Origin: an uncultured Gammaproteobacteria bacterium
GTDB lineage: Bacteria > Pseudomonadota > Gammaproteobacteria > JACCXJ01
Assembly: GCA_963764725.1 (NCBI GenBank)
Contig: CAVXTM010000016.1
Span: 1-64,000, forward strand
DNA: 64,000 bases
Reading direction: 5' to 3'
Part shown: piece by piece, positions 1 to 15,156 of the stretch
Layout: every line of letters starts with the position of its first letter
Numbering within the stretch: the first letter of the stretch is position 1
Position numbers and translations under genes: made by a program
The notes under the pieces: model-generated
The model's database searches: none
Told to the model about the DNA's origin: nothing
Seen by the model: the letters and a program-made list of their open reading frames with translations, nothing else

Positions 1-75
1 TGAACACCGCCACACCCTTCAGGAACTTAATTAACCTGCCGGAAGGCGGGGATTTCAGTATTGTCTCTGCCCACC

Positions 76-2082
76 ATGAACGCACCTTTCACCCACGACG
101 TCTTCCTGAGCCACAGCTCGAAGGACAAGGCGGTCGTGCGCGCCGTCGCGGAGCGGTTGCGGACGGACGGGCTGCGCGTGTGGTTCGATGATTGGGTGCT
201 CAAGCCCGGCGACAGCATCCCGGCGAAGATCGAGGAAGGGCTGGAGCACTCGCGCGTGCTCGTGCTCTGCATGTCGGCGAATGCGTTCGGCTCGGACTGG
301 GCGCAGTTGGAGGCCGGCACGTTCCGGTTTCGCGACCCGCTGAACAAGGAGCGCCGCTTCATTCCCCTGCGGCTCGACGACGCCCCCATCAAAGGCTCCC
401 TGGCGCAATTCCTTTACATCAACTGGCTGCCGGAGGACCGCGAGCAGGAGTATGCGAAGCTCCTCGAAGCCTGCCGACCGCCAGCGAAGCCGCCGGTGGC
501 GGAGGCAGGGGCCTGCGTCGCGAGCAGGTTGCAGAAAAGGCCATCCAGCTCGACACCAAGGCGGCGATCTTGCCTACGCATTCAGTCCAGATGGAAAGCG
601 CGCGCTTACTGGCGGCCGAAGACAAGACCGTGCGGCTGTGGGACGTGGAGACGGGGCGCTGCCTGCGCGTGCTCGAAGGCCACACGCAACGAGTCCGGAG
701 CGTGGCGTGGAGCGCCGATCAACGCCGCGCGCTCTCCGGCTCCGAGGACAAGACCGTGCGGCTGTGGGACGTGGAGACCGGGCGCTGCCTGCGCGTGCTC
801 GAAGGCCACACCGGTACGCGGTCTAGGAGCGTGGCGTGGAGCGCCGATCAACGCCGCGCCCTCTCCGGCTCCGATGACCAGACCGTGCGGCTGTGGGACG
901 TGGAGACGGGGCGCTGCCTGCGCGTGCTCGAAGGCCACCACGGCGGCGTCAGGAACGTGGCGTGGAGCGCCGATCGGACGCCGCGCCTTCTCCGGCGACG
1001 ACGATGGCGGCATCCGGGTGTGGGATCTGTCGGAATTTGTCACCGAGGCGCGAGCACCGGAAGCCACCGCGCCAGCCTTGCCGCTCGCGCCGGACCAGGT
1101 CCAATACACGAACGCCAAAGTCCTCCTCGTCGGCGAGAGCGGCGCGGGCAAGACCGGGCTTTCCAAGCGGCTGGCTTTGAACGACTGGAAACCCAGCGAC
1201 TCGACGGTCGGCGCGTGGGCGACGCAGTGGAAGCTGCCCGTGTCTTCCGGCGACGGCGTCGAGCGGGAAATCTGGCTCTGGGATTTCGGCGGCCAGGCGG
1301 ACCAGCGGTTGATCCACCAGCTCTACATGGACGAAACCGCGCTGGCGGTGCTGGTCTTCGACGGCCAGAAGGAAGACCTCTTCGAGACGCTGGGCCAGTG
1401 GGACCGCGATCTCACCCGCGCCTCGCGCAAGGCGTTCGCCAAGCTGCTGGTCGCCGGGCGCGTGGATGCCGGCGGCCTGCGCGTCAGCCGGAGCCAGATC
1501 GAAACCTTCGCGAAGGAACGCGGCTACCTGCAATTTCTGGAAACCAGCGCCAAGACCAACCTCGGCTGCGAGGAACTCAAGCAGGCCATCCTCGACGGCA
1601 TCCGCTGGGAGGACATCCCGTGGCGCTCCTCGCCGCTGCTCTTCAAGCGGCTCAAGGAGGAGATCATCCGCCTCAAGGACGAAGGCCGGGTGCTGATGCG
1701 CTTCAACGAACTGCGCGAGACGCTGCAACTGCGCCTGTCCGGCGAAGTCGCGCACTTCACCGACGAGGAACTGAAGGCGGTGGTGAGCCTGCTGGCCGGT
1801 CCCGGCGTGGTGTGGGAGCTGAAGTTCGGCAGTTGGGTGCTGCTCCAGCCGGAGCGCATCAACGCCTACGCCCAGGCCGTGATCCAGACGATGCGCGCGG
1901 ATGAACACGAACGCGGCTGCCTGCCGGAGGAGCGGGTCTTGAACGGCGACCTGACGTATCATCGTCCTCGATGGAGCGCCTCGACGCCGACGAGGAGCGC
2001 TTCGTCCTGCTGGCCATGCACCAGACGCTGGTCGAGCGCGGCCTCTGCCTGCGCGAGCACACGGACAAGGGCACGCTGCTGA
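76..2082 (+). CDS. ORF piece carrying the TIR domain (5' end) and the Roc GTPase/COR-N region (3' end); its middle part is out of frame
   Basis: ORF 61..2082 with ATG at 76. TIR motifs and KVLLVGESGAGKTGL, WLWDFGGQ and FLETSAKT (Roc G1/G3/G5). Confidence 0.6.
   Translation: MNAPFTHDVFLSHSSKDKAVVRAVAERLRTDGLRVWFDDWVLKPGDSIPAKIEEGLEHSRVLVLCMSANAFGSDWAQLEAGTFRFRDPLNKERRFIPLRLDDAPIKGSLAQFLYINWLPEDREQEYAKLLEACRPPAKPPVAEAGACVASRLQKRPSSSTPRRRSCLRIQSRWKARAYWRPKTRPCGCGTWRRGAACACSKATRNESGAWRGAPINAARSPAPRTRPCGCGTWRPGAACACSKATPVRGLGAWRGAPINAAPSPAPMTRPCGCGTWRRGAACACSKATTAASGTWRGAPIGRRAFSGDDDGGIRVWDLSEFVTEARAPEATAPALPLAPDQVQYTNAKVLLVGESGAGKTGLSKRLALNDWKPSDSTVGAWATQWKLPVSSGDGVEREIWLWDFGGQADQRLIHQLYMDETALAVLVFDGQKEDLFETLGQWDRDLTRASRKAFAKLLVAGRVDAGGLRVSRSQIETFAKERGYLQFLETSAKTNLGCEELKQAILDGIRWEDIPWRSSPLLFKRLKEEIIRLKDEGRVLMRFNELRETLQLRLSGEVAHFTDEELKAVVSLLAGPGVVWELKFGSWVLLQPERINAYAQAVIQTMRADEHERGCLPEERVLNGDLTYHRPRWSASTPTRSASSCWPCTRRWSSAASACASTRTRARC
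620..1030 (+). repeat. Near-identical 126-129 bp tandem repeats encoding WD40 blades
   Basis: GACCGTGCGGCTGTGGGACGTGGAGAC starts at 626, 752 and 881; unit translates DKTVRLWDVETGRCLRVLEGH...VAWSAD. Confidence 0.92.
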
Positions 2083-3110
2083 TCTTCCCCAGCTACTACC
2101 GCCGCGAACGCCCGGAGCTGGTCGGGCATCCGGCGGTGCTGGTGAGCTATCGCTTCAACGGCTTTCTCGACGACATCTACGCCACGCTGGTGGTGCGGCT
2201 GCATCACACCGAGCCGTTCGAGCAGGATCAGCTCTGGCGCTACGCCGCCGATTTCAAGACGCTCACCGGCAAACAACTCGGCGTGAAGCTGACCCGCCGG
2301 GCGGAAGGCGCGGGCGAGCTGGAGGTGTATTTCGATCCGGCGATCGCGGTCGAGGAAAAGATCATCTTCAGCAAATACGTCCACGAGCACCTGCTGCAGA
2401 AGGCGCCGGGACGTGGTGCGGCTGCGCCATTACGTCTGCCCGCACTGCGGCACGCCGGTGGGCAATCGCGAGGTGGCGATGAACGGCTGAACGATGGCTG
2501 CAAGCCGGCAACGGAGCCGGGTCAAGCCGAGCAAGGAGATCCGACGATCATCTGCGTGAACTGCGAGAAGCGCGTGCCGCTGTGGGACGAACTGGAGCAG
2601 CTCTTCGCCAGCCCGGAGATGCAGCAGCGGGTGCGCGAACTGCAGGAGCAGTCCGCCATCGTGCTCGACAACGAGAGCAAGGAGCGCGCGCTGGTCGGCG
2701 AGGTGATCTCCACGGTGGCGCTCGCGGGTCAGATCAGCCGGGAGTTCAACGTGAGCGACCACGGCATCGACATGGAGATCGAGTTCAAGGACGACGACGG
2801 CGAGGCGACCGGGCGGAAGCTCTACCTGCAACTGAAGTCGGGCGACTCCTACCTGCGCGAGCGGAAGAGCGACGGCGCGGAAATCTTCACGATCAAGGAC
2901 GAGCGCCACGCCCGCTACTGGATGGCGCAGGCGTTTCCCGTGCTGCTGGTGATCCGGAACTCAGAGGGCGAGGTCCGCTGGATGGAAGTGCGCGACTGGC
3001 TGAAACGCGCGAGCGACAACGGCAAGAAACCCGTGAAGCAGATCGTCTTCGAGGGCGAGCGCTTCGACGTGATGAGCGTGCGCCGCTGGCGGGACAAGGC
3101 GCTGGCGTAA
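1971..3110 (+). CDS. ORF piece carrying COR-C and the C-terminal DUF4365-like PD-(D/E)XK nuclease domain
   Basis: SDHGIDMEIEF...KLYLQLKSG...YW...PVLLV...WM pattern typical of DUF4365. Confidence 0.65.
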   Translation: MERLDADEERFVLLAMHQTLVERGLCLREHTDKGTLLIFPSYYRRERPELVGHPAVLVSYRFNGFLDDIYATLVVRLHHTEPFEQDQLWRYAADFKTLTGKQLGVKLTRRAEGAGELEVYFDPAIAVEEKIIFSKYVHEHLLQKAPGRGAAAPLRLPALRHAGGQSRGGDERLNDGCKPATEPGQAEQGDPTIICVNCEKRVPLWDELEQLFASPEMQQRVRELQEQSAIVLDNESKERALVGEVISTVALAGQISREFNVSDHGIDMEIEFKDDDGEATGRKLYLQLKSGDSYLRERKSDGAEIFTIKDERHARYWMAQAFPVLLVIRNSEGEVRWMEVRDWLKRASDNGKKPVKQIVFEGERFDVMSVRRWRDKALA

Positions 3111-3152
3111 ACCAAAAAAAAACTAAAAAAAAGGGGGACGGATCGCTCTATG

Positions 3153-3294
3153 GGCACTTCTAACTAAAATTGCGACGGATACCTTCTCCCCTTTAGGGAG
3201 AAGGCTAGGATGAGGGGAATAAAAATCATCGAGTTACATCCCCTCACCCTAGCTCTCTCCCGGTCCGGTGGGAGAGGGGATTTTTAGAAATGCC
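3153..3294. repeat. Small palindromic MITE/REP-like element with imperfect terminal inverted repeats
   Basis: GGCACTTCTAA (3153-3163) vs TTAGAAATGCC (3284-3294). Internal hairpins CCTTCTCCC-5nt-GGGAGAAGG and CTCTCTCCC-8nt-GGGAGAGGG, linked by the inverted pair CTAGGATGAGGGG / CCCCTCACCCTAG. Confidence 0.65.
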
Positions 3295-3473
3295 TTTTCG
3301 AGTATTACGCGCCCACCGTTGGGGGCGGGGGCGGAATGGCTATGCGCCGTAGCCAAATAAGTGCCCGACGACACATTCGTCCACGGCGTATCTAACGGAC
3401 AAACTCAAAGCAGAGAAACAGTATGGCCGCGGTGATCCGCACTTCGTTCCGCAAGGCACCGATCGAAGCACCG

Positions 3474-5072
3474 CTACATCGGCCGGCGCAGCACGGTGGG
3501 TGAGGGCGGGCGGGACGCATCGGGAAGCGGATAGTCCAGGGTGTAGTGAAGGCCGCGGCTCTCCTTGCGCCGCAGGGCAGATTCGATGATAAGCTCTGCG
3601 ACCTGCACGAGATTACGCAGCTCGATGAGATCTACGGTGACACGAAAGTTACCGTAATATTCGACGATTTCATCGCGCAAGAGTTGCACCCGGCGGCTGG
3701 CCCGCTGCAAGCGCTTTGTGGAGCGCACGATGCCGACATAGTCCCACATAAAGCGGCGCAATTCGTCCCAATTATGGGCCACGACGACCTCCTCGTCGGA
3801 GTCCGTCACTTGCGTTTCATCCCAATCGGGGACCGATGGCACGCGCGGCGCGCCCGCCAGTTGCGTGCGGATGTCCATAGAGGCGGCGCGCGCCATGACG
3901 AGGCATTCCAACAAGGAATTGCTGGCCATGCGGTTGGCCCCGTGCAGGCCCGTGTAAGCGACTTCGCCGATGGCATAAAGCGCCGGAACCGCGCTACGCC
4001 CGTAGCGATCGGTAACTACCCCGCCGCACATATAGTGTGCAGCGGGCACGACGGGGATCGGCTCGCGGGTCATGTCGATGCCGTACTCAAGGCAGCGGGC
4101 GGCGATAGTGGGAAAGTGGCCGAGAATAAACTCCGCCGGTTTATGCGAGATGTCGAGGTAGACAAAATCGACGCCCAAGCGTTTCATCTCGTGATCGATC
4201 GCGCGCGCAACGATGTCGCGGGGCGCGAGCTCCGCGCGCGCATCGAAACGGTCCATGAAAGCCGAGCCGTCGGGCAGCAGGAGTTTCCCACCCTCGCCAC
4301 GGACAGCCTCGGTAATGAGAAAGGACTTCGCCCGAGGATGATAAAGGCAGGTAGGGTGGAACTGAAAAAACTCCATGCTGGCGATGGGACAACCGGCGCG
4401 CCAGGCCATCGCCACGCCGTCGCCAGTCGCGACATCGGGATTGCTCGTATATAGGTAGACCTTGCCGGCCCCGCCGGTAGCGAGAATCACGAAGCGGGCT
4501 TCAAAGGTGAGTACCCGGCGCGCGTCCGTATCCAAGACGTACGCGCCTAGGCAGCGCTCCGCGCCGAGACCGAACTTGGCCGCGGTTATGAGGTCGATCG
4601 CCAGGTGGTGCTCGAACACATCAATGGAGGGATGAGCACGGACCCGGTCTTCAAGGATGTTTTCAATGGCGCGTCCGGTGGCGTCCGCTGCATGGATAAT
4701 GCGCCGGTGGCTATGCCCCCCTTCGCGGGTCAGGTGATATTCTATGCCCCCTACCTTTGGTTCGGCGCGCGTGAACGCGACACCTTGTTCGATAAGCCAC
4801 TGCACGCTTTCACGTCCGCGTTCGACGACGTAGCGTACCGCCTCGAGATCGCAAAGGCCGGCGCCGGCGGTCAAGGTATCCTGCACATGGGACTCGATCG
4901 AGTCACAGCTATCGAGCACCGCTGAGATCCCCCCTTGCGCGTAGAGTGTCGCGCCTTCCTGTAACGGGCCCTTCGACAGGAGGGCGACCCGCGCGCCTTT
5001 CGCGAGCTGAAGCGCGACACTTAATCCGGAAGCACCGCTGCCGATGACGAGGACATCGTACTGGTGCGTCAT
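3474..5072 (-). CDS. nadB: L-aspartate oxidase
   Basis: GSGASG FAD motif, [35 protein letters not shown]; divergent from rpoE as usual. Confidence 0.97.
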
Positions 5073-5232: not shown

Positions 5233-5808
5233 ATGGGCGAGACCGGCGCCGATGCACAGCTTGTCAAGAGGGTTCAGAAGGGCGACAAAAAAGCGTTTGA
5301 TCTACTCGTGTTGAAATACCAGCAGAGGATCATTAAATTGGTGTCCCGATATGTACGTGATCCCACCGACACCTTGGATGTTGCTCAGGATGCATTTCTA
5401 AAGGCCTACCGCGCCCTGCCAAACTTCCGCGGCGATAGCGCCTTCTATACATGGCTATACCGCATAGCTATCAATACGGCGAAAAATTATCTCGTAACCC
5501 AGTCCCGGCGCCCAATGGAATCCGAAAGTTTTCGCGTCGAAGGAGAGCAAGTCGAACTGGAATCGATGCTTAAGGATCTCGCGACGCCTGAAAGTCTCTT
5601 GATTACCGATGAGATCAAGGAGGCCATCGCCGAGGCCATCGAACAGTTACCCGATGACCTTCGCACCGCCATTAATCTTCGTGAGGTCGAGGGTTTGAGC
5701 TATGAGGAAATCGCCGATGTAATGACTTGCCCGATTGGAACGGTCCGATCGCGGATATTCCGGGCTAGGGAAGCGATCGACCATCGGTTAAAAGCGTTAT
5801 TGGAGTGA
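5233..5808 (+). CDS. rpoE: RNA polymerase sigma factor RpoE
   Basis: LVKRVQKGDKKAFDLLVLKYQ, FRGDSAFYTWLYRIAINTAKN, CPIGTVRSRIFRAREAID. Confidence 0.98.
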   Translation: MGETGADAQLVKRVQKGDKKAFDLLVLKYQQRIIKLVSRYVRDPTDTLDVAQDAFLKAYRALPNFRGDSAFYTWLYRIAINTAKNYLVTQSRRPMESESFRVEGEQVELESMLKDLATPESLLITDEIKEAIAEAIEQLPDDLRTAINLREVEGLSYEEIADVMTCPIGTVRSRIFRAREAIDHRLKALLE

Positions 5809-5817
5809 CGAAAAGCT

Positions 5818-6357
5818 ATGAGAAGTGAACGGCGAGAACAGATATCCGCACTTTTGGACGGTGAACTATCAGAGCGCGAGGCCGGTCCGTTATTGATTGA
5901 AATGCGGACCGATCCGGAGTTGAGATCGGCTTGGTCGCGCTATCACTTGATGAGTGACGCGTTATGCCAGCGCCTGCCGGATACGGCGTGTCCGGATATA
6001 TCCAGGAGGGTGTCCTTGGCGCTGGAGCAGGAGCCCGCCTGTCTGCCGATGCGCTGGAGGTTGGAGTCGCGATGGAAGCCGGCCGCGGGGCTCGCCATAG
6101 CGGCTGCTCTCGCGGGAGTCGGGTTCTTCGGTCTTAACCGTAATCAATTACCGGAGCAAGTGCCACAGGTGAGCACTATCGGATCCGCTGAATTTCATCC
6201 CCTGCCCATAGCCACGGTTAAGTGGAACGGTCAACCGGTTGATGCATCGTCGCGCCTGAGCGCGTATATAGTCAATCATCAACAATTCAATTCTAGCCCG
6301 CAGACGCAAGGCTTAACGCCTTACTTCCGGGTGGTTACCCATGAAACCCAGCCGTGA
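5818..6357 (+). CDS. rseA: Anti-sigma-E factor RseA/MucA
   Basis: EQISALLDGEL...WSRYHLMSD, TM segment, YIVNH; follows rpoE. Confidence 0.9.
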   Translation: MRSERREQISALLDGELSEREAGPLLIEMRTDPELRSAWSRYHLMSDALCQRLPDTACPDISRRVSLALEQEPACLPMRWRLESRWKPAAGLAIAAALAGVGFFGLNRNQLPEQVPQVSTIGSAEFHPLPIATVKWNGQPVDASSRLSAYIVNHQQFNSSPQTQGLTPYFRVVTHETQP

Positions 6358-7336
6358 AATCGGGGCGTTCCGCCGGCTGACTCCGTGTTTTTTGATCCTC
6401 ACCCTATCCGCGCCGCCGGTTTCCGCTGCCGACACCTCCAACCAAGCCCGTGCCATCCTTGCCAAGATGGCCCATGCGACCCGTGCCAACAACTATGACG
6501 GGACCTTCGTGTCGATCCGCGGCGCTGACGCCGCGAGTATGCGTATCATTCATAGAACCGATAGCCGCGGAGAACATGAACGTCTGATTGCGCTTACTGG
6601 CACGGCCAAAGAAGTGATCCGCCGCAATGACGAGGTGATCTGTATCTTTCCAAATGAGCGCAGCGTCATGGTCGACAAAACCTCGCAACAGGCATTCTTT
6701 GGGACAGCGTGGAGGCAGCCGATCGAGCAGGTCGCTGCGCTCTACGATTTTTCCGTCCTCGGCGGAGATCGAATCGCGGGCAGGCCGACATGGGTCTTGG
6801 GCATACAACCCAAGGACACCGATCGGTATAGCTACCGCCTCTGGATTGACACAAGCTCCAGCTTGTTGTTGAAGTCACAGGTGCTGGACGGTGGCGGCAG
6901 CATCCTCGAGCAAATGCTGTTTACAGCGTTGGAGACACCCGCGGTGATTTCAGAGAGCGCGCTGCAGGCATCGATTAGCGGGGAGGGCTATACTTGGTAT
7001 CGGAACGAAACACCCCGAGCGTCCAGTGAGCGGAATTCGGGATGGAAGGTAGGATGGTTGCCGCGTGGTTTCGCGATGACCGAGCAGGAGATGCATGACA
7101 TGCCCAAAGACAAGAAAGCGGTAAAGCACAAGGTGTTTTCGGACGGCTTGGCGACGGTCTCGGTATTTATCGAGAAAAATGAGAAGCAGGCGGTCCCGGT
7201 GCAGGGATATTCCGCGTTTGGTGCATTGAATACTTACAGTACCTTGGCGGACGGACATCAAATCACCGTTGTCGGCGAGGTGCCGGCGGCGACGGTGCGG
7301 CAGATAGCCACCTCCGTAAGCCCGGTTGCCCCCTAA
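6341..7336 (+). CDS. rseB: Sigma-E regulator RseB/MucB
   Basis: Signal peptide, NYDGTFV, WLPRGF, FSDGLATVSVFIE, ITVVGEVP. Confidence 0.93.
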   Translation: MKPSREIGAFRRLTPCFLILTLSAPPVSAADTSNQARAILAKMAHATRANNYDGTFVSIRGADAASMRIIHRTDSRGEHERLIALTGTAKEVIRRNDEVICIFPNERSVMVDKTSQQAFFGTAWRQPIEQVAALYDFSVLGGDRIAGRPTWVLGIQPKDTDRYSYRLWIDTSSSLLLKSQVLDGGGSILEQMLFTALETPAVISESALQASISGEGYTWYRNETPRASSERNSGWKVGWLPRGFAMTEQEMHDMPKDKKAVKHKVFSDGLATVSVFIEKNEKQAVPVQGYSAFGALNTYSTLADGHQITVVGEVPAATVRQIATSVSPVAP

Positions 7337-7439
7337 GCGGCCCGTGGAAGTCACGGCCGACCCTCGTCACGCTTTGTTCGAGTTATAAAAGGTTGCATTG
7401 GAAAAATCTTACCCCTTGTGGAAGGGAGGCAAAGTCACG

Positions 7440-8876
7440 ATGGGACTAATACACTCTTTTTCTAAAGCGCTCTTGGCGCTCGCGGCGCTATTCAGCATGC
7501 AGACAGCCGTTGGCAACTCGCTGCCGGACTTTACCGATCTTGCCTCGGAGAACGCCCCGGCCGTGGTAAATATCGGGACGACACTGAAAGAATCCGAAAA
7601 ACGCGCCGATGGTGCACCCCCTCAGCTCCAAATACCTGATATTCCCGAAGACAGCCCGTTAAATGAGTTCTTTCGCCGCTTTTTTGGCGATAATATCGAG
7701 GGACCTGAGCTCTCTCCACGATCATCATTGGGGTCCGGCTTTATCCTCTCCAAGGACGGCTACGTGATCTCCAACTATCACGTCGTCAAGGATGCGGATG
7801 AGATTTGGGTGCGTCTGAGCGATCGGCGCGAATTTCTGGCCAAGCCGATTGGTCACGACGAGCGCAGCGATTTGGCAGTATTGAAAATTGAAGCCACCGA
7901 TTTGCCGACTGTTACGCTCGGCCGTTCCTCGGATCTTAAGGTCGGAGAATGGGTTTTAGCCATCGGCTCACCGTTCGGGTTCGATCACTCTGTGACGGCG
8001 GGGATCGTGAGCGCGAAGGGGCGGGCGTTGCCGAATGAAAACTACGTCCCCTTTATTCAAACAGATGTCGCGATCAACCCGGGAAACTCGGGCGGTCCGC
8101 TGTTTAATCTGGACGGGGAGGTCGTTGGTGTGAATTCGCAGATTTACAGCCGGACTGGCGGTTTTATGGGATTGTCGTTTGCGATCCCGGTCGAAGTCGT
8201 GATGAATGTGTATCACCAGATCGTCGCCAAGGGCAAGGTGTCGCGAGGCTGGTTAGGCGTGCTGATTCAGGAGGTCACTCGAGAGCTTGCGGAATCCTTC
8301 GGAATGGCTCGCCCGCATGGGGCTTTGGTCGCCAAGGTGCTTCCGGACAGCCCGGCCGCCGAAGCCGGGATTCAGCCCGGCGACGTGGTGGTCGAATTTA
8401 ACGGTATCGAGATCGATCTGTCCTCGGATTTACCGCCGCTCGTCGGTAACACGGAGGTTGGCAAACGGGCCCCTTTAAAGCTTATTCGTGAGGGCGAACC
8501 GAAAGTGGTGGAAATTGCCGTCGGGGAGCTTCCGCAAGAAGAAGAGCTGAAGCTGGCGTCCTCGGATCGAGGTACGGCGGAGGCGATCACGGATAATCGC
8601 TTGAAGATTGCGGTGAAAGATCTTTCCGGCAAGCAACGTAAAGCGCTCGAAATCGAAGGCGATCACGGGGTGGTTGTGGAAGCGGTGAAACCGGGACCGG
8701 CGAAAAGCGCCGGGATCCGTAAGGGCGACGCCATATTGCTAATCGACAACGTGAAGGTCAAGGACAGCAAGCATTTCACCGAAATAGTGGCGACCTTGCC
8801 CGCGGGGAAGCCCATACCGGCCCTTATTCAACGCCAAGGCGGTCCGATTTTTCTGGCGATCAAAATCGCCGAGTAG
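7440..8876 (+). CDS. degP: Do/DegQ-family periplasmic serine protease (MucD-like) with 2 PDZ domains
   Basis: LPDF, GSGFI, NYHVV, SDLAVLKI, INPGNSGGPL; ATG 7440 preceded by GGAGG. Confidence 0.9.
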   Translation: MGLIHSFSKALLALAALFSMQTAVGNSLPDFTDLASENAPAVVNIGTTLKESEKRADGAPPQLQIPDIPEDSPLNEFFRRFFGDNIEGPELSPRSSLGSGFILSKDGYVISNYHVVKDADEIWVRLSDRREFLAKPIGHDERSDLAVLKIEATDLPTVTLGRSSDLKVGEWVLAIGSPFGFDHSVTAGIVSAKGRALPNENYVPFIQTDVAINPGNSGGPLFNLDGEVVGVNSQIYSRTGGFMGLSFAIPVEVVMNVYHQIVAKGKVSRGWLGVLIQEVTRELAESFGMARPHGALVAKVLPDSPAAEAGIQPGDVVVEFNGIEIDLSSDLPPLVGNTEVGKRAPLKLIREGEPKVVEIAVGELPQEEELKLASSDRGTAEAITDNRLKIAVKDLSGKQRKALEIEGDHGVVVEAVKPGPAKSAGIRKGDAILLIDNVKVKDSKHFTEIVATLPAGKPIPALIQRQGGPIFLAIKIAE

Positions 8877-8941
8877 GGGGTTCAGCGTGGAATTCCGCTG
8901 CGGTATGAGGTGTTCAGGCGCCGGTCGCAATCGACTAGAAT

Positions 8942-8966
8942 GACGGCCTGCGAACGTCAGGCCGTC
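8942..8966 (+). terminator. Hairpin between degP and lepA
   Basis: GACGGCCTG-7nt-CAGGCCGTC perfect 9-bp stem; no U tract. Confidence 0.3.
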
Positions 8967-9082
8967 CCCATTGCGAAGTCGAATCCCCGTATAATTCTCG
9001 TGCTGGCCAATATAAGCGTGCGTGGCGTGAACGGCCGGGCTTTCGCCTGCCCTGTGGTGTAGAGCCAGCGAGCGCGAGCGCC

Positions 9083-10879
9083 ATGGAGCACGTGCGAAAC
9101 TTCTCGATCATTGCCCATATCGATCATGGTAAGTCCACCTTGGCCGATCGTTTTATCCAGTTGTGCGGCGGACTCAGTCAGCGCGAGATGGCCGAACAAG
9201 TGCTGGACTCGATGGACATCGAGCGCGAGCGCGGGATCACCATCAAGGCTCAGAGCGTAACCTTGGGCTTTCGCGCCGATGACGGCATTACCTACCAGCT
9301 TAATTTCATCGATACTCCGGGGCATGTTGACTTTAGCTACGAGGTATCGCGCTCGCTCGCCGCCTGCGAGGGGGCACTGTTGGTCGTCGATGCGGCGCAG
9401 GGTGTGGAAGCCCAGACCGTCGCTAACTGCCATACGGCTGCCGAGCACGGACTCGAGATTATCCCGGTTCTCAATAAAGTCGATTTACCCGCCGCCGATC
9501 CGGAACGTGTGCGCGCGGAGATCGAGGATATTATCGGTATCGATTCGAGCGAGGCGCTCGTGGTCAGCGCGAAGACGGGACAGGCTGTGGGCGATCTTCT
9601 GAACGCGATCGTAAAACGGGTGCCCAAGCCGCGCGGGAACCCGGAAGCGCCTTTGAAAGCCTTGATTATCGACTCCTGGTTCGACAATTACCTGGGGGTC
9701 GTGTCCTTGGTGCGCGTATTCGATGGCGTGATCGAAACCGGTGCTAAGGTTCGGGTCATGTCGGCGGGGCGCGAATACGAAATCACCGAGCTCGGTGTCT
9801 TCACACCTAAGCGCGTGGTATGCAAGACATTGCGCACGGGGGAGGTGGGTTTCGTCGTGGCCGGGATAAAAGAAATCGACGGCGCCCCGGTCGGGGATAC
9901 GTTTACCGGCGCAAGGCGGCCAGCCGCCGAGCCGCTCGCGGGCTTTAAGGAGATCAAACCCAACGTCTTCGCCGGCCTTTACCCCAGCGACTCAAACGAT
10001 TACGAAGCGTTTCGCGAAGCTTTGGCGAAACTGCGCTTGAACGACTCGGCGCTGCGTTATGAACCCGAGACCTCGCAAGCACTAGGATTTGGATTCCGGT
10101 GTGGATTTCTGGGCTTGTTGCATATGGAGATCGTCCAGGAGCGTTTGGAGCGAGAGTATAAACTCGCCCTCATTACTACCGCGCCCACGGTAGTCTATGA
10201 GGTAGCCACTACCTCGGGCGAGGTCCTACGCATCGAGAATCCGGCCAAGCTCCCGCCCCAGAACGAAATCGCCGAGATCCGGGAACCCATCATTCAAGTT
10301 GACATACTGGTGCCGCAGGCGCACCTCGGCAACGTGATTACGCTATGCGTGGATCGGCGCGGTTCGCAAACGAAACTCCACTACGGGCGGCGACAGGTCG
10401 CCGTGAGCTACGAGCTGCCAATGAGCGAGATGGTGCTCGATTTTTTCGATCGGCTGAAGTCCTTAACGCGCGGTTATGCGTCGTTGGACTATAGCTTTCT
10501 CCGGTTTCAACGGGCGTCACTGGTGAAGCTTGATATCTTGATCAATGGCGATCGGGTAGACGCCTTGTCCGCCATCGTTCACCAGAACCAAGCCCAACGG
10601 CGCGGCCGGGAGCTTGCCGAAAAGATGCGGGAATTGATCCCGCGCCAAATGTTTGAGGTCGTGATACAAGCGGCTATAGGGGCGCAAATCGTGGCACGGG
10701 AGACGGTAAAGCCGCTGCGAAAAAACGTTACTGCGAAATGTTACGGAGGCGATGTGACTCGAAAACGGAAACTTCTCGAAAAGCAAAAGGCCGGCAAGCG
10801 GCGCATGAAACAAGTAGGAACGGTCGAGATCCCACAGGAAGCCTTTATGGCCGTGCTGACCGTGGGTAAGGCGAAATGA
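9083..10879 (+). CDS. lepA: Elongation factor 4
   Basis: [37 protein letters not shown]. Confidence 0.99.
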
Positions 10880-11646
10880 ACGTAGATTTCGCGTTGGTCA
10901 TGGTAGTGTTGGTATTCATCAGCGGACTGGTCTGGCTAGCGGACACTGTGTTTTTCGCGCCACGCCGCGATCCGGCCGCCAAGCTCCCGCTAATGGTGGA
11001 CTATGCGCGCTCCTTGTTTCCGATTTTCCTCATCGTGCTGCTCCTGCGGTCGTTTCTGGTCGAGCCATTTCGCATTCCTTCGGGCTCCATGATGCCAACG
11101 CTCTTGATCGGAGATTATATTGTCGTCAACAAGTATGTTTATGGTCTTAGGCTCCCGGTTCTCAATACGAAGGTCATACGATTGGGCGCGCCCGAACGCG
11201 GTGATGTCGTCGTATTTCGATACCCGGAAGACCCCTCGACTCCGTTTATCAAACGCGTGATAGGTTTGCCTGGGGACCGCATTGCTTACCACGACAAGGC
11301 ATTGTGGATTAACGACGAACGGATTTCGCAAACGCGGTTGGGTCCGTATGAGGGCGTAGGCGCTGGTACCTCGATGACCGGGGCGGCTTTAATCGACGAA
11401 GATCTCTATGATGTCAAGCATGCTATTCTCGTCGAACCCGAGCGGCCATCATTGGAGACCGAGACGGTGGTGCCCGATGGCCATTATTTCGTGATGGGTG
11501 ACAATCGCGACAACAGCAAGGACAGCCGCTACTGGGGCACCGTACCCGATGATCACCTCATCGGGAAAGCATTTATGATCTGGATGAACTGGGACAGTCA
11601 GAACGGGGGGATTGATTGGCAGCGCCTAGGCCGTTCGATTCGTTAA
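10876..11646 (+). CDS. lepB: Signal peptidase I
   Basis: [43 protein letters not shown]. Confidence 0.98.
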
Positions 11647-11675
11647 CGCACACTCATAGCACTAAGGAGTACGTC

Positions 11676-12086
11676 ATGAAGCATGACAACCTACCGGCAA
11701 AGCAGCGGGGACTCACCCTCTGGGGACTTTTGATGGGCGGCGCGCTCCTCGGATTCGCGGCCCTGACCCTTATGAAGCTGTTTCCGCTCTACAACCAAAG
11801 TTTCAAAGTGCGTGCCGCCATGCAAGCCGTGGCCGGTATGCCGGAAATCGGCCAAAAAGGCGTACAGGAGATCAGGAACTTAATCGAGCGTAACTTCGAG
11901 GTCTCCGATGTGGACACGATTACCGGAAGTGATCTCCAGAAATATTTGAAGGTCGTAGCTAACTCCGATGGCAAGGGCCGTCTCATGACCATGACCTATG
12001 AAGATCGCGGACCGCTCTTTGGTGATCTGGATGTCGTCTTGAAGTTCAACGAAAGCATCGCCATCCCAGGCATGGGTATCGAGTGA
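11676..12086 (+). CDS. DUF4845-family protein
   Basis: KQRGLTL N-terminus plus TM segment; conserved position between lepB and rnc; AAGGAG RBS before ATG 11676. Confidence 0.8.
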   Translation: MKHDNLPAKQRGLTLWGLLMGGALLGFAALTLMKLFPLYNQSFKVRAAMQAVAGMPEIGQKGVQEIRNLIERNFEVSDVDTITGSDLQKYLKVVANSDGKGRLMTMTYEDRGPLFGDLDVVLKFNESIAIPGMGIE

Positions 12087-12766
12087 CAGCGACTTCAGGG
12101 ATCAGCGAGGCGCTTGGGTATGGTTTTAAGACTAGAAGCTTATTAACGTCCGCTCTTACTCACAGCAGCGCGGGGGAAGAAAACAACGAACGGCTGGAAT
12201 TCCTCGGTGACGCCGTGCTCGATCTTGTAGTTGCGGAAGCGCTTTTCGAGCGTTTCCCGTACGCGCAAGAAGGTGAATTGAGCCGCTTGCGTTCGACACT
12301 CGTCAACCGGGAAACACTGGCCGTGGTGGCGCGTTACCTCGACCTGGCAGGCCATCTCACCTTGGGCCAAGGCGAAAAAAAAAGCGGCGGGATGCAGCGG
12401 GAATCGATACTCGCCAACGCGCTCGAAGCGATTATCGGCGCCATCTATCTCGATGGGGGACTGGCAGTCTGTCGCGAACGGGTGCTGGCGTGGTTCTCAT
12501 CGATGCTGGATCGGACCCTGCCGGAGGCGATCAGAAAGGATCCGAAAACGGAGCTTCAGGAAATACTGCAAGCACGCCGCCTTCCGCTTCCCACCTACGC
12601 GGTGGCCCGCGTTGCCGGTAAACCTCACAAGCAGCTTTTTACCGTCACCTGCCAGTGCGTACCGTTGCCCTCGCCGGTGTCGGCGCAGGGCTCGAGCCGC
12701 AGGCGCGCGGAGCAGGCGGCAGCGGAGCAAGCCCTGCGGCTACTGCGCGAGGCGAGTGATTCCTGA
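12083..12766 (+). CDS. rnc: Ribonuclease III
   Basis: NNERLEFLGDAVL signature; dsRBD KDPKTELQE. Confidence 0.98.
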   Translation: MTATSGISEALGYGFKTRSLLTSALTHSSAGEENNERLEFLGDAVLDLVVAEALFERFPYAQEGELSRLRSTLVNRETLAVVARYLDLAGHLTLGQGEKKSGGMQRESILANALEAIIGAIYLDGGLAVCRERVLAWFSSMLDRTLPEAIRKDPKTELQEILQARRLPLPTYAVARVAGKPHKQLFTVTCQCVPLPSPVSAQGSSRRRAEQAAAEQALRLLREASDS

Positions 12767-12772
12767 TCGCTA

Positions 12773-13675
12773 ATGATCCTTGCTAGCCCCGTGAGCCGCT
12801 GCGGGATGGTTGCCATCGTCGGGCGTCCCAACGTCGGCAAATCAACGTTTCTTAACCGAGTTATCGGACAGAAGCTCAGCATCACCTCGCGCAAACCTCA
12901 GACGACCCGTTATCAGATCCTCGGCATTAAGACAGAAGGTTTCCATCAGATCGTGTTCGTGGATACACCTGGACTGCATCACGGGCGGCACGGGGCGCTC
13001 GATCGCGCCTTAAATCGGGAGGCCATTAAGGCAATTGCACAGGTCGATATTATCCTATTCATGGTGGAGGCGTTGCGCTGGACGGAGGATGATCAGTACG
13101 TCTTGAACTGTATAAAGCCGGCCGCGTGTCCGGTCCTGGTTGCGGTTAATAAAGTCGACACCGTCGCGGATAAATCCAAACTCTTGCCTTACCTCAGCGA
13201 AGTCAGCGGATTCATGGATCTCGCCGAGATCGTTCCGCTGTCGAGCTCCACCGGTGACAACATCGTCGCATTGGAGGAGGCATTGAAGTCCAGGCTTCCC
13301 GAGGGGGCCGCACTATTTCCCGCGGGCGAACTGACCGATCGCGGCGAGCGGTTTTTCGCGGCCGAGCTGATCCGCGAGCAGTTGCTGCACAAGCTCGGAG
13401 CGGAGGTGCCGCACCGCTTGACCGTAATGATAGACGAGTTCGTCTCGAAACCGCACATAACATGTATCGATGCCACGATTTGGGTAGAGCGGCCGGGCCA
13501 AAAGCGAATCGTGATCGGCGCGCATGGGGCGGTGCTGAAAGCCGCGGGTCAACTTGCACGATTGGAGATGGAGCGCTTGTTCGGCAGCAGGGTTTTTCTG
13601 CGGACTTGGGTCAAGGTCAAGGAAAGGTGGTCCGATGATATTCGGGCGTTGGGCCAGCTAGGGTTTCACGCTTAA
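12773..13675 (+). CDS. era: GTPase Era
   Basis: GRPNVGKST, SITSRKPQTTR, DTPG, NKVD, KH domain. Confidence 0.98.
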   Translation: MILASPVSRCGMVAIVGRPNVGKSTFLNRVIGQKLSITSRKPQTTRYQILGIKTEGFHQIVFVDTPGLHHGRHGALDRALNREAIKAIAQVDIILFMVEALRWTEDDQYVLNCIKPAACPVLVAVNKVDTVADKSKLLPYLSEVSGFMDLAEIVPLSSSTGDNIVALEEALKSRLPEGAALFPAGELTDRGERFFAAELIREQLLHKLGAEVPHRLTVMIDEFVSKPHITCIDATIWVERPGQKRIVIGAHGAVLKAAGQLARLEMERLFGSRVFLRTWVKVKERWSDDIRALGQLGFHA

Positions 13676-13706
13676 GACGTGGCTTGTGTCTCGATAGGGG
13701 TGGCCG

Positions 13707-14402
13707 GTGCGTGTTGACCTGCACAGCGCGTTTGTCCTGCACCAGCGTTCGTATCGAGAGACGAGCTTACTTTTAGAAGTTTTCTCCTTGCGCTCAGGAA
13801 GGGTGGGATTGATCGCGAAGGGCGCAAACCGGCAGCGTTCGACGTTCCGCGGCGCTCTGCAATTCTTTAGGCCGCTACTTCTGGCCTGGGCAGGACGGGG
13901 GGAGCTGTCGACGCTCGTCGGAGCCGAGGTCGACGGACCCTTCTCTGCCTTGAGCGGCCGGGCGCTCTTAAGCGCTTTCTATCTCAATGAACTCTTGATG
14001 CGGGTATTGCATCGGGACGATCCGCATCCAGCGCTCTTCGCGGCCTATCGCCAAGCCTTGGAAAGCCTCGCGCAAGCCGGGAACGAGGAGCCGGCCTTGC
14101 GCTTGTTCGAGAAACGTCTGCTCGAAGACATCGGCTATGGCCTTAGTCTGAGCTTTGATGTGGATACCAATGCTCCCATTGAACCTGAACGCGATTATTA
14201 CTATCAAAGTGATAAAGGTCCCTGGCGCGATCCACCCGCGCACATCGACACCGTTAAGGTAAAGGGGCGCACCTTGATCGCCTTAGCCGCGGCGCTCCTC
14301 CATGAACCTGAAGCACTCAATGAGTCGAAACGGTTGATGCGATTTATCCTTGCTTCTCATATCGGCGCCCGGCCGTTGGCCAGCCGGCAGTTGTTCAGTT
14401 AG
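13707..14402 (+). CDS. recO: DNA repair protein RecO
   Basis: [31 protein letters not shown]. Confidence 0.96.
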
Positions 14403-14415
14403 AGCGTCCAGGTCA

Positions 14416-15156
14416 ATGGTTACACGAGGACCAATTCTGCTTGGAGTCAACATCGACCATGTGGCGACGTTAAGGCAAGCACGGGGAACCCAGTACCCCG
14501 ATCCCGTTCAAGCCGCCATGGAAGCGCAGCACGCCGGAGCGGACGCCATCACGATCCATTTGCGTGAGGACCGGCGCCATATACAGGAGCGCGATGTGGA
14601 ACTGCTCGCCGCCGTGCTTCAAGTGCGCATGAACCTCGAAATGGCAGTGACCGATGCTATGCTCGCGTTGGCCGAGCGGATCCGACCGGCGGACTGTTGT
14701 TTTGTGCCCGAAAGACGACAGGAATTGACCACCGAAGGGGGGTTGGATGTCGCGGCACAACTCGACGCGATTTCAGGGGCATGCAAACGTATCGAGCGTG
14801 TGGGCGCTCGCGCGTCGCTGTTTGTCGACCCAGATCCGCGCCAAATCGAAGCCGCCCGCGAGGCGGGCGCGACGGTCATCGAAATCCACACCGGACGCTA
14901 TGCGGACGCGGCGGATCCAGGCGCGCGAGAGCGCGAGCTACAGCGTATTGTTGCGGCGGGTCGGATGGCCGCAAGTCAGGGGTTGCGAGTCCATGCCGGA
15001 CACGGGCTCAACTATCAGAATGTTGACCCAATTGCGGCCATAGCCGAGGTAGAGGAGCTCAATATTGGGCACGCGATCGTCGCGCGCGCGGTGTTCAGCG
15101 GTCTCGCGGAGGCGGTGCGCGAGATGAAAAGGCTGATGCTGGAAGCACGGCGATGA
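14416..15156 (+). CDS. pdxJ: Pyridoxine 5'-phosphate synthase
   Basis: [37 protein letters not shown]. Confidence 0.98.

Follow-up and report, generated by a model that had tools for sequence, protein, structure and literature searches.

Counter-invader systems of prokaryotes that are built on AP-GTPase (Roc) and COR domains have been predicted by Kaur, Iyer, Burroughs and Aravind (2021; PMC8195603). In the searched text of that paper these proteins carry N-terminal leucine-rich repeats (LRRs) and a C-terminal slot that accepts at least 24 effector domains, TIR included; in the searched text of an earlier paper (Kaur 2020; PMC7159879), Roc-COR appears only in the reference list. The protease of the Runella gasdermin system is labelled Roc-COR-CHAT in the consulted part of its preprint (bioRxiv 10.1101/2021.06.07.447441), and the top-ranked papers on DUF4365, judged by their titles and the openings of their abstracts, mostly deal with short Argonaute systems. 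Two of the latter, SPARDA (short prokaryotic Argonaute, or pAgo, with DREN-APAZ) and SPARTA (short pAgo with TIR-APAZ), have effector domains in common with the family described here. The subject of this study is a gene at positions 76-3110 (+ strand) of the first 64 kb (hereafter the window) of contig C16 (CAVXTM010000016.1), one of the 19 contigs of the 4.2-Mb genome G000 of an uncultured gammaproteobacterium. We read it as a horizontally acquired, inactivated copy of a widespread TIR-WD40-Roc-COR-zinc ribbon-DREN family, the intact members of which may be NLR-like, ROCO-switched immune or suicide receptors; the probability of this reading as a whole is put at about 0.6, and within it we infer the sensing, the switching and both enzyme activities.

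The family resembles the systems of Kaur et al. (2021), as represented in the searched text, in having Roc and COR as the central switch of a single chain that also holds a rapidly evolving repeat sensor and variable effectors; it differs in that the sensor consists of WD40 repeats, the TIR domain is N-terminal and a second effector, a zinc ribbon plus DREN, is found at the C-terminus. With the Runella protein, as described in the part of the preprint consulted, it has in common the fusion of Roc-COR to an immune effector domain of a bacterial cell-death system; there the effector is a CHAT protease, its target is a separate gasdermin and several genes make up the system, and TIR, WD40 and nuclease domains are absent from the description. 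A first-pass annotation of the window, made from its sequence, had known of no characterised system with this architecture, which is too strong given the ROCO-centred conflict systems in print in these two partly covered sources. Such systems are already known, and the TIR-WD40-Roc-COR-DREN combination is a new variant among them, as judged from the searched text of PMC8195603.

Three-frame translation of positions 1-3200 reveals a coding path that runs from an ATG at 76 to a stop at 3108-3110, hopping between frames, and that encodes, in order, TIR, WD40 repeats, a Roc GTPase, COR, a CxxC...CxxC zinc ribbon and a DUF4365/DREN nuclease. All of the motifs quoted in the first-pass annotation are present: SDWAQLE, GESGAGKT, DFGGQ and ETSAKT in frame 1, CVNC, DHGID and QLKSG in frame 3, and CPHC, as it had said, in an un-annotated frame (frame 1, 2407-2484). 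The joined protein of about 1000 aa that it proposed is correct in its domain order; the frame is broken, and eight changes of frame are needed to join it, more than had been implied. The window copy nonetheless keeps every conserved TIR, GTPase, Cys and nuclease residue that was scored in the family alignments.

Each open piece of the gene was scanned separately with Pfam, and all of the parts lie on the + strand. The TIR domain (76-510, frame 1; TIR_2, E value 2.3e-28) keeps FLSHSS and S-D-W-A-Q-L-E with its candidate catalytic Glu. It is followed by a linker and the first WD40 blade (511-615), where three frame changes were located by three-frame translation and DNA alignment with nine relatives, and then by a near-identical WD40 repeat array (616-996, mainly frame 3) of three tandem units of about 126-129 nt, one with an extra codon; Tandem Repeats Finder gave a period of 129, 3.0 copies and 90% matches for this array, and Pfam WD40 (1.4e-34) matched three stretches in 513-983. 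Frame 1 is open over 985-1962, which holds the last WD40 blade, a linker, the Roc GTPase (about 1117-1594) and the first half of COR, and which matches Ras (7.5e-21) and Roc (2e-17). The second half of COR (1965-2403, frame 3) is conserved with homologues, and the COR fold is covered by the matches of the homologue model described below. Both Cys columns of the first CxxC (CPHC; 2407-2484, frame 1) are at least 90% conserved, and the Pfam matches of this zinc-ribbon piece are all sub-threshold (E 0.003-0.08). A variable-length linker (2485-2534, frame 2) leads to the second CxxC (CVNC), the DUF4365/DREN PD-(D/E)XK domain and the stop (2535-3110, frame 3), with DUF4365 (PF14280) matched at 2478-3107 (5.1e-24). 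Among relatives the linker between the CxxC pairs has a short form (about 10 aa) or a long form (about 33 aa), and that of the window is intermediate and frame-shifted. The sole Pfam match of the window protein to a P-loop ATPase of the STAND class was nSTAND3, at E 0.094 and below its cut-off. The G+C content is 0.64-0.70 within the gene versus 0.52-0.63 over the next 7 kb downstream.

Relatives of the gene are numerous. A word-indexed protein search with the open Roc-COR piece, limited to longer proteins, scored 8000 candidates, of which 2090 reached E<=1e-3; identity over Roc-COR is 77-97% for the best 120 database proteins, most of which have lengths of 1100-1150 aa, and their sources, where a name is given, call family proteins 'TIR domain-containing protein' or 'small GTP-binding protein'. 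A profile of the COR region found 1874 clusters (at 50% identity) with E<=1e-3, and 553 with E<=1e-30. In one pattern scan of the GTDB species genomes, a relative is encoded by 148 of the 189 pattern-matched stretches, from which 80 loci were kept; their open reading frames (ORFs) were called by a procedure of our own, and 48 intact relatives were used for the counts given below. These loci span Acidobacteriota, Verrucomicrobiota, Planctomycetota, Pseudomonadota (Bradyrhizobium, Magnetospirillum, Gallionella and Nitrotoga), Cyanobacteriota (Acaryochloris marina MBIC11017), Nitrospirota and others. Cultured strains are represented by A. marina MBIC11017 (L065), Bradyrhizobium sp. LTSP885 (L027) and Magnetospirillum fulvum DSM 13234 (L038), with homologues of about 1117-1409 aa. 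At some loci two or three family members stand side by side, and some genomes hold two distant paralogues, for example at 78% and 52% identity to P0003 on one chromosome; the loci grouped under these multi-copy arrangements are L054, L055, L056, L036 and L071, and also L003/L069, L008/L042 and L022/L073.

The domain order found in pieces in the window is carried by one ORF of 1100-1200 aa in 48 of the 80 loci, and the alternative that homologues encode the TIR/WD40 and Roc/DUF4365 parts as separate genes therefore fails. The match is split over adjacent ORFs in at least seven loci (L019, L035, L044, L052, L066, L067 and L080), and others are truncated at a contig end, contain fewer repeats or reach greater lengths (1260-1738 aa). 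On these counts the one-polypeptide form is the rule and broken copies are not rare. Seven length variants from the COR-profile search were also scanned with Pfam. They included a 1413-aa protein with TIR and a WD40 region about twice as long, TIR-Roc-COR-DUF4365-HEAT-AAA_23/AAA_21, Roc-COR-DUF4365-AAA_21, TIR-WD40-Roc-COR with a C-terminal AAA_21, a form with an N-terminal receiver domain, and one with a C-terminal phage-integrase domain that may be a gene-call fusion; by this domain make-up Roc-COR-DUF4365 is the constant core, around which the other modules vary. In P0126, P0127 and P0175, a C-terminal AAA_23/AAA_15/AAA_21 domain (an ABC ATPase like those of AbiEii/OLD) follows DUF4365 as a second NTPase in the chain, and some of these AAA-bearing relatives are without WD40 or TIR.

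For COR, structure prediction has supplied what the sequence profiles did not. An AlphaFold2 model of the intact relative L032 from Roc to its end (45-row alignment; mean predicted local distance difference test score, pLDDT, 81.7; predicted template modelling score, pTM, 0.64) was compared with known structures using Foldseek. The matches were to LRRK1 (9.5e-20), the Roco protein of C. tepidum (6hlu, 1e-17, and 3dpu, 7e-17; LRR-Roc-COR and RocCOR), LRRK2 and Roco2 RocCORdC of M. barkeri (4wnr; TM 0.71 on the target), all of them ahead of plain Rab GTPases, over 340-727 alignment columns at 13-19% sequence identity. By sequence, the same region matched only Rab GTPases in the PDB, and only in its GTPase part. 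A COR domain directly after Roc, as claimed in the first-pass annotation, is thus confirmed by the predicted fold of an intact homologue, the sequence profiles being silent. The family shares the Roc-COR tandem fold with LRRK1/LRRK2 and the C. tepidum and M. barkeri Roco proteins in these model-based matches; it differs from them in having neither kinase nor LRRs, in the low identity and in a GTPase that is closest to Rab by sequence.

For the C-terminal 242 aa, a sequence search of the PDB gave no match (best E 0.12). The last 245 aa of an intact relative, when modelled on their own (pLDDT 82.8), matched the DREN domains of three SPARDA systems first (XauSPARDA, EaeSPARDA and NbaSPARDA chains; 7.6e-9 to 8e-5), and then I-Ssp6803I and archaeal Hjc. 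Together with the DUF4365 match, this predicted fold confirms the PD-(D/E)XK nuclease domain that had been proposed, in which the roles of individual residues are putative. The self-association of DREN is supported by a complex prediction, in which four copies scored 0.85 versus 0.00 for the best of three controls, a result that may mirror the likeness to solved SPARDA tetramers; among proteins with solved structures, 20 of 30 pairs and 1 of 23 single chains attain the mark used. The runs share at least 90% of their contacts, and the pLDDT of the partner was at least 83. The Aga_REase and Aga_TIR models of PADLOC also match the corresponding ends of the family proteins. Unlike SPARDA and SPARTA, the family has neither Argonaute nor APAZ, the PADLOC matches cover only the effector part of the profiles (e.g. 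positions 23-118 of 429), and activation here would run via WD40 and Roc-COR and not via a guide-target duplex.

The catalytic-type residues are kept, nearly invariantly, in the intact homologues. The Glu of the TIR W-x-x-x-E motif, which from work on plant and bacterial TIR domains we take to be the catalytic residue, is E in 48 of 48, and its Trp column is W in 47. In the GTPase, the P-loop Gly (48/48) and Lys (47/48), DFGGQ (47/48) and the A of SAK (48/48) are retained, such that the G1, G3 and G5 motifs are conserved and the domain is a Ras-like Roc GTPase of the kind found in ROCO proteins. A C-terminal alignment of 44 sequences has the second Cys pair, E135 (EIEFK) and K153 (QLK) invariant, with the first Cys pair, D127, D131 and E133 at least 90% conserved. 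The WD40 region behaves differently: blade anchors (RLWD/RVWD) number seven in 20 of the 48 intact relatives, six in 12, five in seven and eight in four, as expected for a propeller of about seven blades, whereas the window copy has four. Across 301 WD40 units the entropy peaks at positions 4, 22, 6, 3 and 24 (3.3-4.0 bits), most other positions being at about 1-2.5 bits; the variable positions presumably form the top face of the propeller.

Bacterial STAND/NLR-like proteins (Avs, bNACHT) and the fungal HET-E/NWD NLRs with WD40 repeats are organised in three parts, with an effector, an NTPase that acts as the switch and repeats that act as the sensor. The intact family protein would follow the same logic, and its WD40 repeats are alike in being internally similar with few variable positions; its NTPase is a Ras-like GTPase and not a STAND ATPase, so that it would be NLR-like in working and not a member of that class. 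In the mechanism that we favour, an invader-derived ligand would be bound by the variable face of the propeller, to which Roc-COR would respond by changing its nucleotide state and driving assembly. The assembled state would bring TIR domains together for NAD+ cleavage and would unite DREN domains into an active tetramer that cleaves nucleic acid indiscriminately, with the death or arrest of the infected cell as the outcome. TIR NADases likewise need assembly. In SPARDA, according to the part of the study consulted, DREN alone is monomeric and inactive, and tetramerisation (on a filament, in NbaSPARDA) activates it (PMC12205087).

By extension of this scheme, the family would be a single-gene immune receptor that spreads horizontally across phyla and in which Roc-COR takes the place of the STAND ATPase, ligand capture by WD40 fires the TIR NADase and a tetramerisation-activated DREN together, and an almost frozen core is combined with a diversifying sensor face; this extension is tentative, and we hold it at slightly under even odds. 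If correct, the family would be a widespread single-gene immune system with a GTPase switch that reuses the effectors of SPARTA and SPARDA without Argonaute, and the first GTPase-switched, dual-effector immune receptor of bacteria, tractable as a model of ROCO activation. Debate continues over the control of Roc-COR by ligands in LRRK2 and other ROCO proteins, and a compact bacterial ROCO protein with a sensor and two assayable outputs (NAD+ loss and nucleic-acid cleavage) would offer a simple read-out of it. The intact family deserves an experiment.

Several observations weigh against a role in immunity, or against parts of the domain assignment on which it depends. The COR pieces of the window (1971-2408) matched no Pfam family at E<=0.1, Pfam COR included, and the G4 motif is a non-canonical GRVD (R in 48/48, D in 47/48) and not NKxD. 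The core is 77-97% identical across phyla, whereas defence genes usually diverge fast. No full-length model was found in PADLOC-DB v2 or NCBIfam, where P0003 and P0012 gave domain-level matches alone (the TIR to PDC-S66, ThsB and Aga_TIR, the C-terminus to Aga_REase-APAZ and PDC-M02A), and no paper on the TIR-WD40-Roc-COR-DUF4365 architecture was found in a literature search that covered text outside figures, supplements and subscription journals; within the same limits, no named anti-phage ROCO system was found beyond Kaur 2021 and the Runella protease. There is no conserved partner gene, the biggest non-family cluster being present in 12 of the 80 loci, from which the system appears self-contained. 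The defence-island context of homologues, one of the points raised by the first-pass annotation, was surveyed at 33 loci through the two nearest called genes per side (132 proteins, greedy ORF calls). Strong PADLOC matches among these neighbours are scattered (DpdF, PDC-S71, PsyrT, PDC-S05 and NERD+UvrD once each, mad2 twice), and the Pfam tally is led by HEAT repeats, UvrB, helicases, ComEC and other housekeeping families, with carbamoyl-phosphate synthase also amongst the housekeeping-type neighbours. A consistent defence-island context is therefore not shown by this census, which is shallow, has no background rate and is weak evidence either way.

Much of this would suit a family that is not anti-phage at all and in which the ROCO protein acts instead in regulated suicide, kin discrimination or stress signalling, or is a selfish element that persists by spreading horizontally. 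The lack of a consistent defence-island context and of a mobile-element partner, the very high conservation across phyla that are intermixed on the tree, and the frequent decay seen in split loci and in the window copy all fit such a role, and in the searched text of their papers Kaur et al. tie systems of this kind to bacteria of multicellular habit (PMC7159879, PMC8195603). We nevertheless regard it as unlikely: both effector domains are best known from immunity in the sources as covered (TIR in Thoeris and SPARTA, DREN in SPARDA), the added modules differ among relatives, and variability that is focused on a few WD40 positions fits an arms race. More improbable still is a Thoeris-like arrangement in which the TIR domain, instead of depleting NAD+, produces a nucleotide that signals to an effector from another gene. 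It would account for the weak matches of the TIR to ThsB models (E 1e-6 at best) and for the one to a Thoeris type III model, which at 8.6e-5 falls well short of the cut-off, yet there is no ThsA-type or other conserved neighbour gene in the 80 loci, and a nuclease effector is already present in the same chain. A ROCO-switched immune or cell-suicide receptor remains the preferred account of the intact family.

As assembled, the window copy is inactivated and is not an open gene. The breaks were placed by tblastn, frame-aware alignment to intact relatives and DNA alignments with eight to nine relatives, and there are eight of them, at about 516 (+2), 567 (-1) and 612 (+1), at 976 (+1), and at about 1963 (+2), 2405 (+1), 2485 and 2531. 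The insertion at 976 (frame 3 to frame 1) is confined to the window in comparison with the DNA of eight relatives, and a base is missing at 975 in some relatives' contigs from sequencing runs X1 and X2 (one contig each). DNA alignment with relatives likewise places a +2 insertion at 1963-1964 (frame 1 to frame 3) and a +1 insertion at 2405 (frame 3 to frame 1), near which relatives in X1 and X2 are without one base at 2401. The changes at about 2485 and 2531 fall in the linker that is shorter or longer among relatives. With eight frameshifts and a shortened repeat array, the full-length protein is most likely not made from this copy. Programmed frameshifting was ruled out by the number of shifts, their occurrence in both directions and the open frames of relatives. 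Long-read indel noise was considered and rejected as well, the 14-16 gap columns between copies of the 2-kb repeat in which contig C10 ends amounting to four or five events (of 1, 4-5 and 9 bases) beside 14 substitutions.

Whether the breaks exist in the organism is a separate matter. A real and recent pseudogene is the account that we favour, with somewhat better than even confidence, and the signs of decay are the eight breaks, the short repeat array, a split transposase in the same island and the split copies in other assemblies. A further sign comes from an unpublished genome of the same genus (G001), in which a 95-aa in-frame ORF (positions 3390-3677 of L090, on G001:C70) is a deleted remnant of the gene, made up of the first 67 residues of the TIR fused to the last 27 residues of the protein; its deletion junction (window position 274 joined to 3036) also occurs in contigs from two soil metagenome runs, X1 and X2. 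The sequence of the window copy itself sits poorly with decay. None of 227 columns that are at least 95% conserved is altered in its pieces, against a median of 2.5 for intact members; its end branch on the Roc-COR tree is 0.039, against a median of 0.16; its own codon changes are 14 synonymous to 11 non-synonymous (for comparison, 29 to 37 in L029), unlike the neutral expectation of about 1:3, which is our own; the joined path is free of stop codons; seven of the eight indels are insertions; and the gene touches the contig end, starting 75 bases in, next to an assembly gap. Assuming that substitutions usually outnumber indels, eight neutral indels should have brought many more non-synonymous and some nonsense changes. 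From this lack of substitution decay it follows that the breaks are either very recent or errors of consensus or assembly; if the inactivation is real, its timing must be very recent.

The second of these, an intact gene with eight frameshifts introduced at a poorly covered or heterogeneous contig end, is a possibility to be taken seriously, albeit one that we hold to be the less probable. Such errors could arise if only some cells of the population carried the island, or if reads of the numerous related genes in the sample were wrongly recruited to it, and contigs of relatives number in the hundreds in soil and cave metagenomes (680 in run X1). The closest database protein, P0001 (97% identity), is moreover in frame at the sites that match 976, 1963 and 2405. 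The assembly is not generally noisy, however, as the next 27 kb hold ordinary long ORFs, and the indels lie outside long homopolymers. The end of contig C10 falls in a repeat of roughly 2 kb, of which there are two further copies at 98.6-98.9% identity, and tRNA-like sequence is truncated at several contig ends, aragorn finding one whole tRNA within 300 bases of a contig end; such ends suggest short reads, which would rarely give indel errors. Split relatives in other assemblies (the at least seven loci above) and the remnant in G001 also speak for real decay. A search of sequencing runs with sampled words of the window found at most 0.23 of the words in the best run, and four runs gave only short contigs of relatives. 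A real pseudogene remains preferred, and the window's own copy is probably dead.

Horizontal acquisition is the best reading of how the gene came to be here. On the tree of the Roc-COR piece the phyla are intermixed, with 26 label changes versus a minimum of 13, and the nearest rows to the window are Acidobacteriota (93% identity to L029). No orthologue was found at the same locus in the same genus, where the matches are only to WD40 or TIR pieces and to the G001 remnant; no second copy was found in G000, and the start of the contig overlaps none of the other contig ends. In the same family, G013 has a full-length relative (39% identity) on a short contig. Elsewhere in G000, large open frames with WD40 repeats (2258 and 976 aa) are found at C11:250014-252074 and C15:269490-271277, where only the repeat part of the query was matched.

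Homology with the same genus begins at the stop of nadB (window ~3439-3474), a 532-aa ORF read as L-aspartate oxidase (3474-5072, - strand), which is the first gene syntenic with relatives and forms the right border of the insertion. In two same-genus genomes, G004 and G006, the DNA beyond nadB matches G000:C10:255043-261465 at 92-94%, from which the extra DNA in G000 is deduced to be C10:261466-271988, the assembly gap and window positions 1-3444. The insertion is thus at least 14 kb long and absent from both of these genomes, with the window gene at its nadB-proximal edge. Its part on C10 (L106 1967-12489) contains an intact IS5-like DDE transposase, a second one split in two, a HAD hydrolase, several multi-copy repeats and ORFs without a Pfam match. 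A different insert occupies the same nadB-adjacent place in G003, and this variable region looks like an integration hot spot. For G000 itself the significance is modest, this being a recently acquired and apparently dead gene in a variable region, rich in insertion sequences, beside nadB.

Just downstream of the foreign gene, native DNA is marked by a dispersed repeat of about 100-120 bp (3174-3295) that is typical of the genus, with 16 matches in G000 (counting its own site, and with some sites matched on both strands) and many others in genomes of the same genus; a chimeric join is argued against by its position, 60 bases past the stop of the gene. The repeat has internal inverted symmetry and looks like an element of the repetitive extragenic palindromic (REP) or miniature inverted-repeat transposable element (MITE) type. 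Beyond nadB, window positions 5233-15156 hold an ordinary run of intact ORFs of 156-598 aa, which by ORF sizes and order alone resembles an rpoE-rseA-rseB-protease-lepA-lepB-rnc-era-recO-pdxJ cluster.

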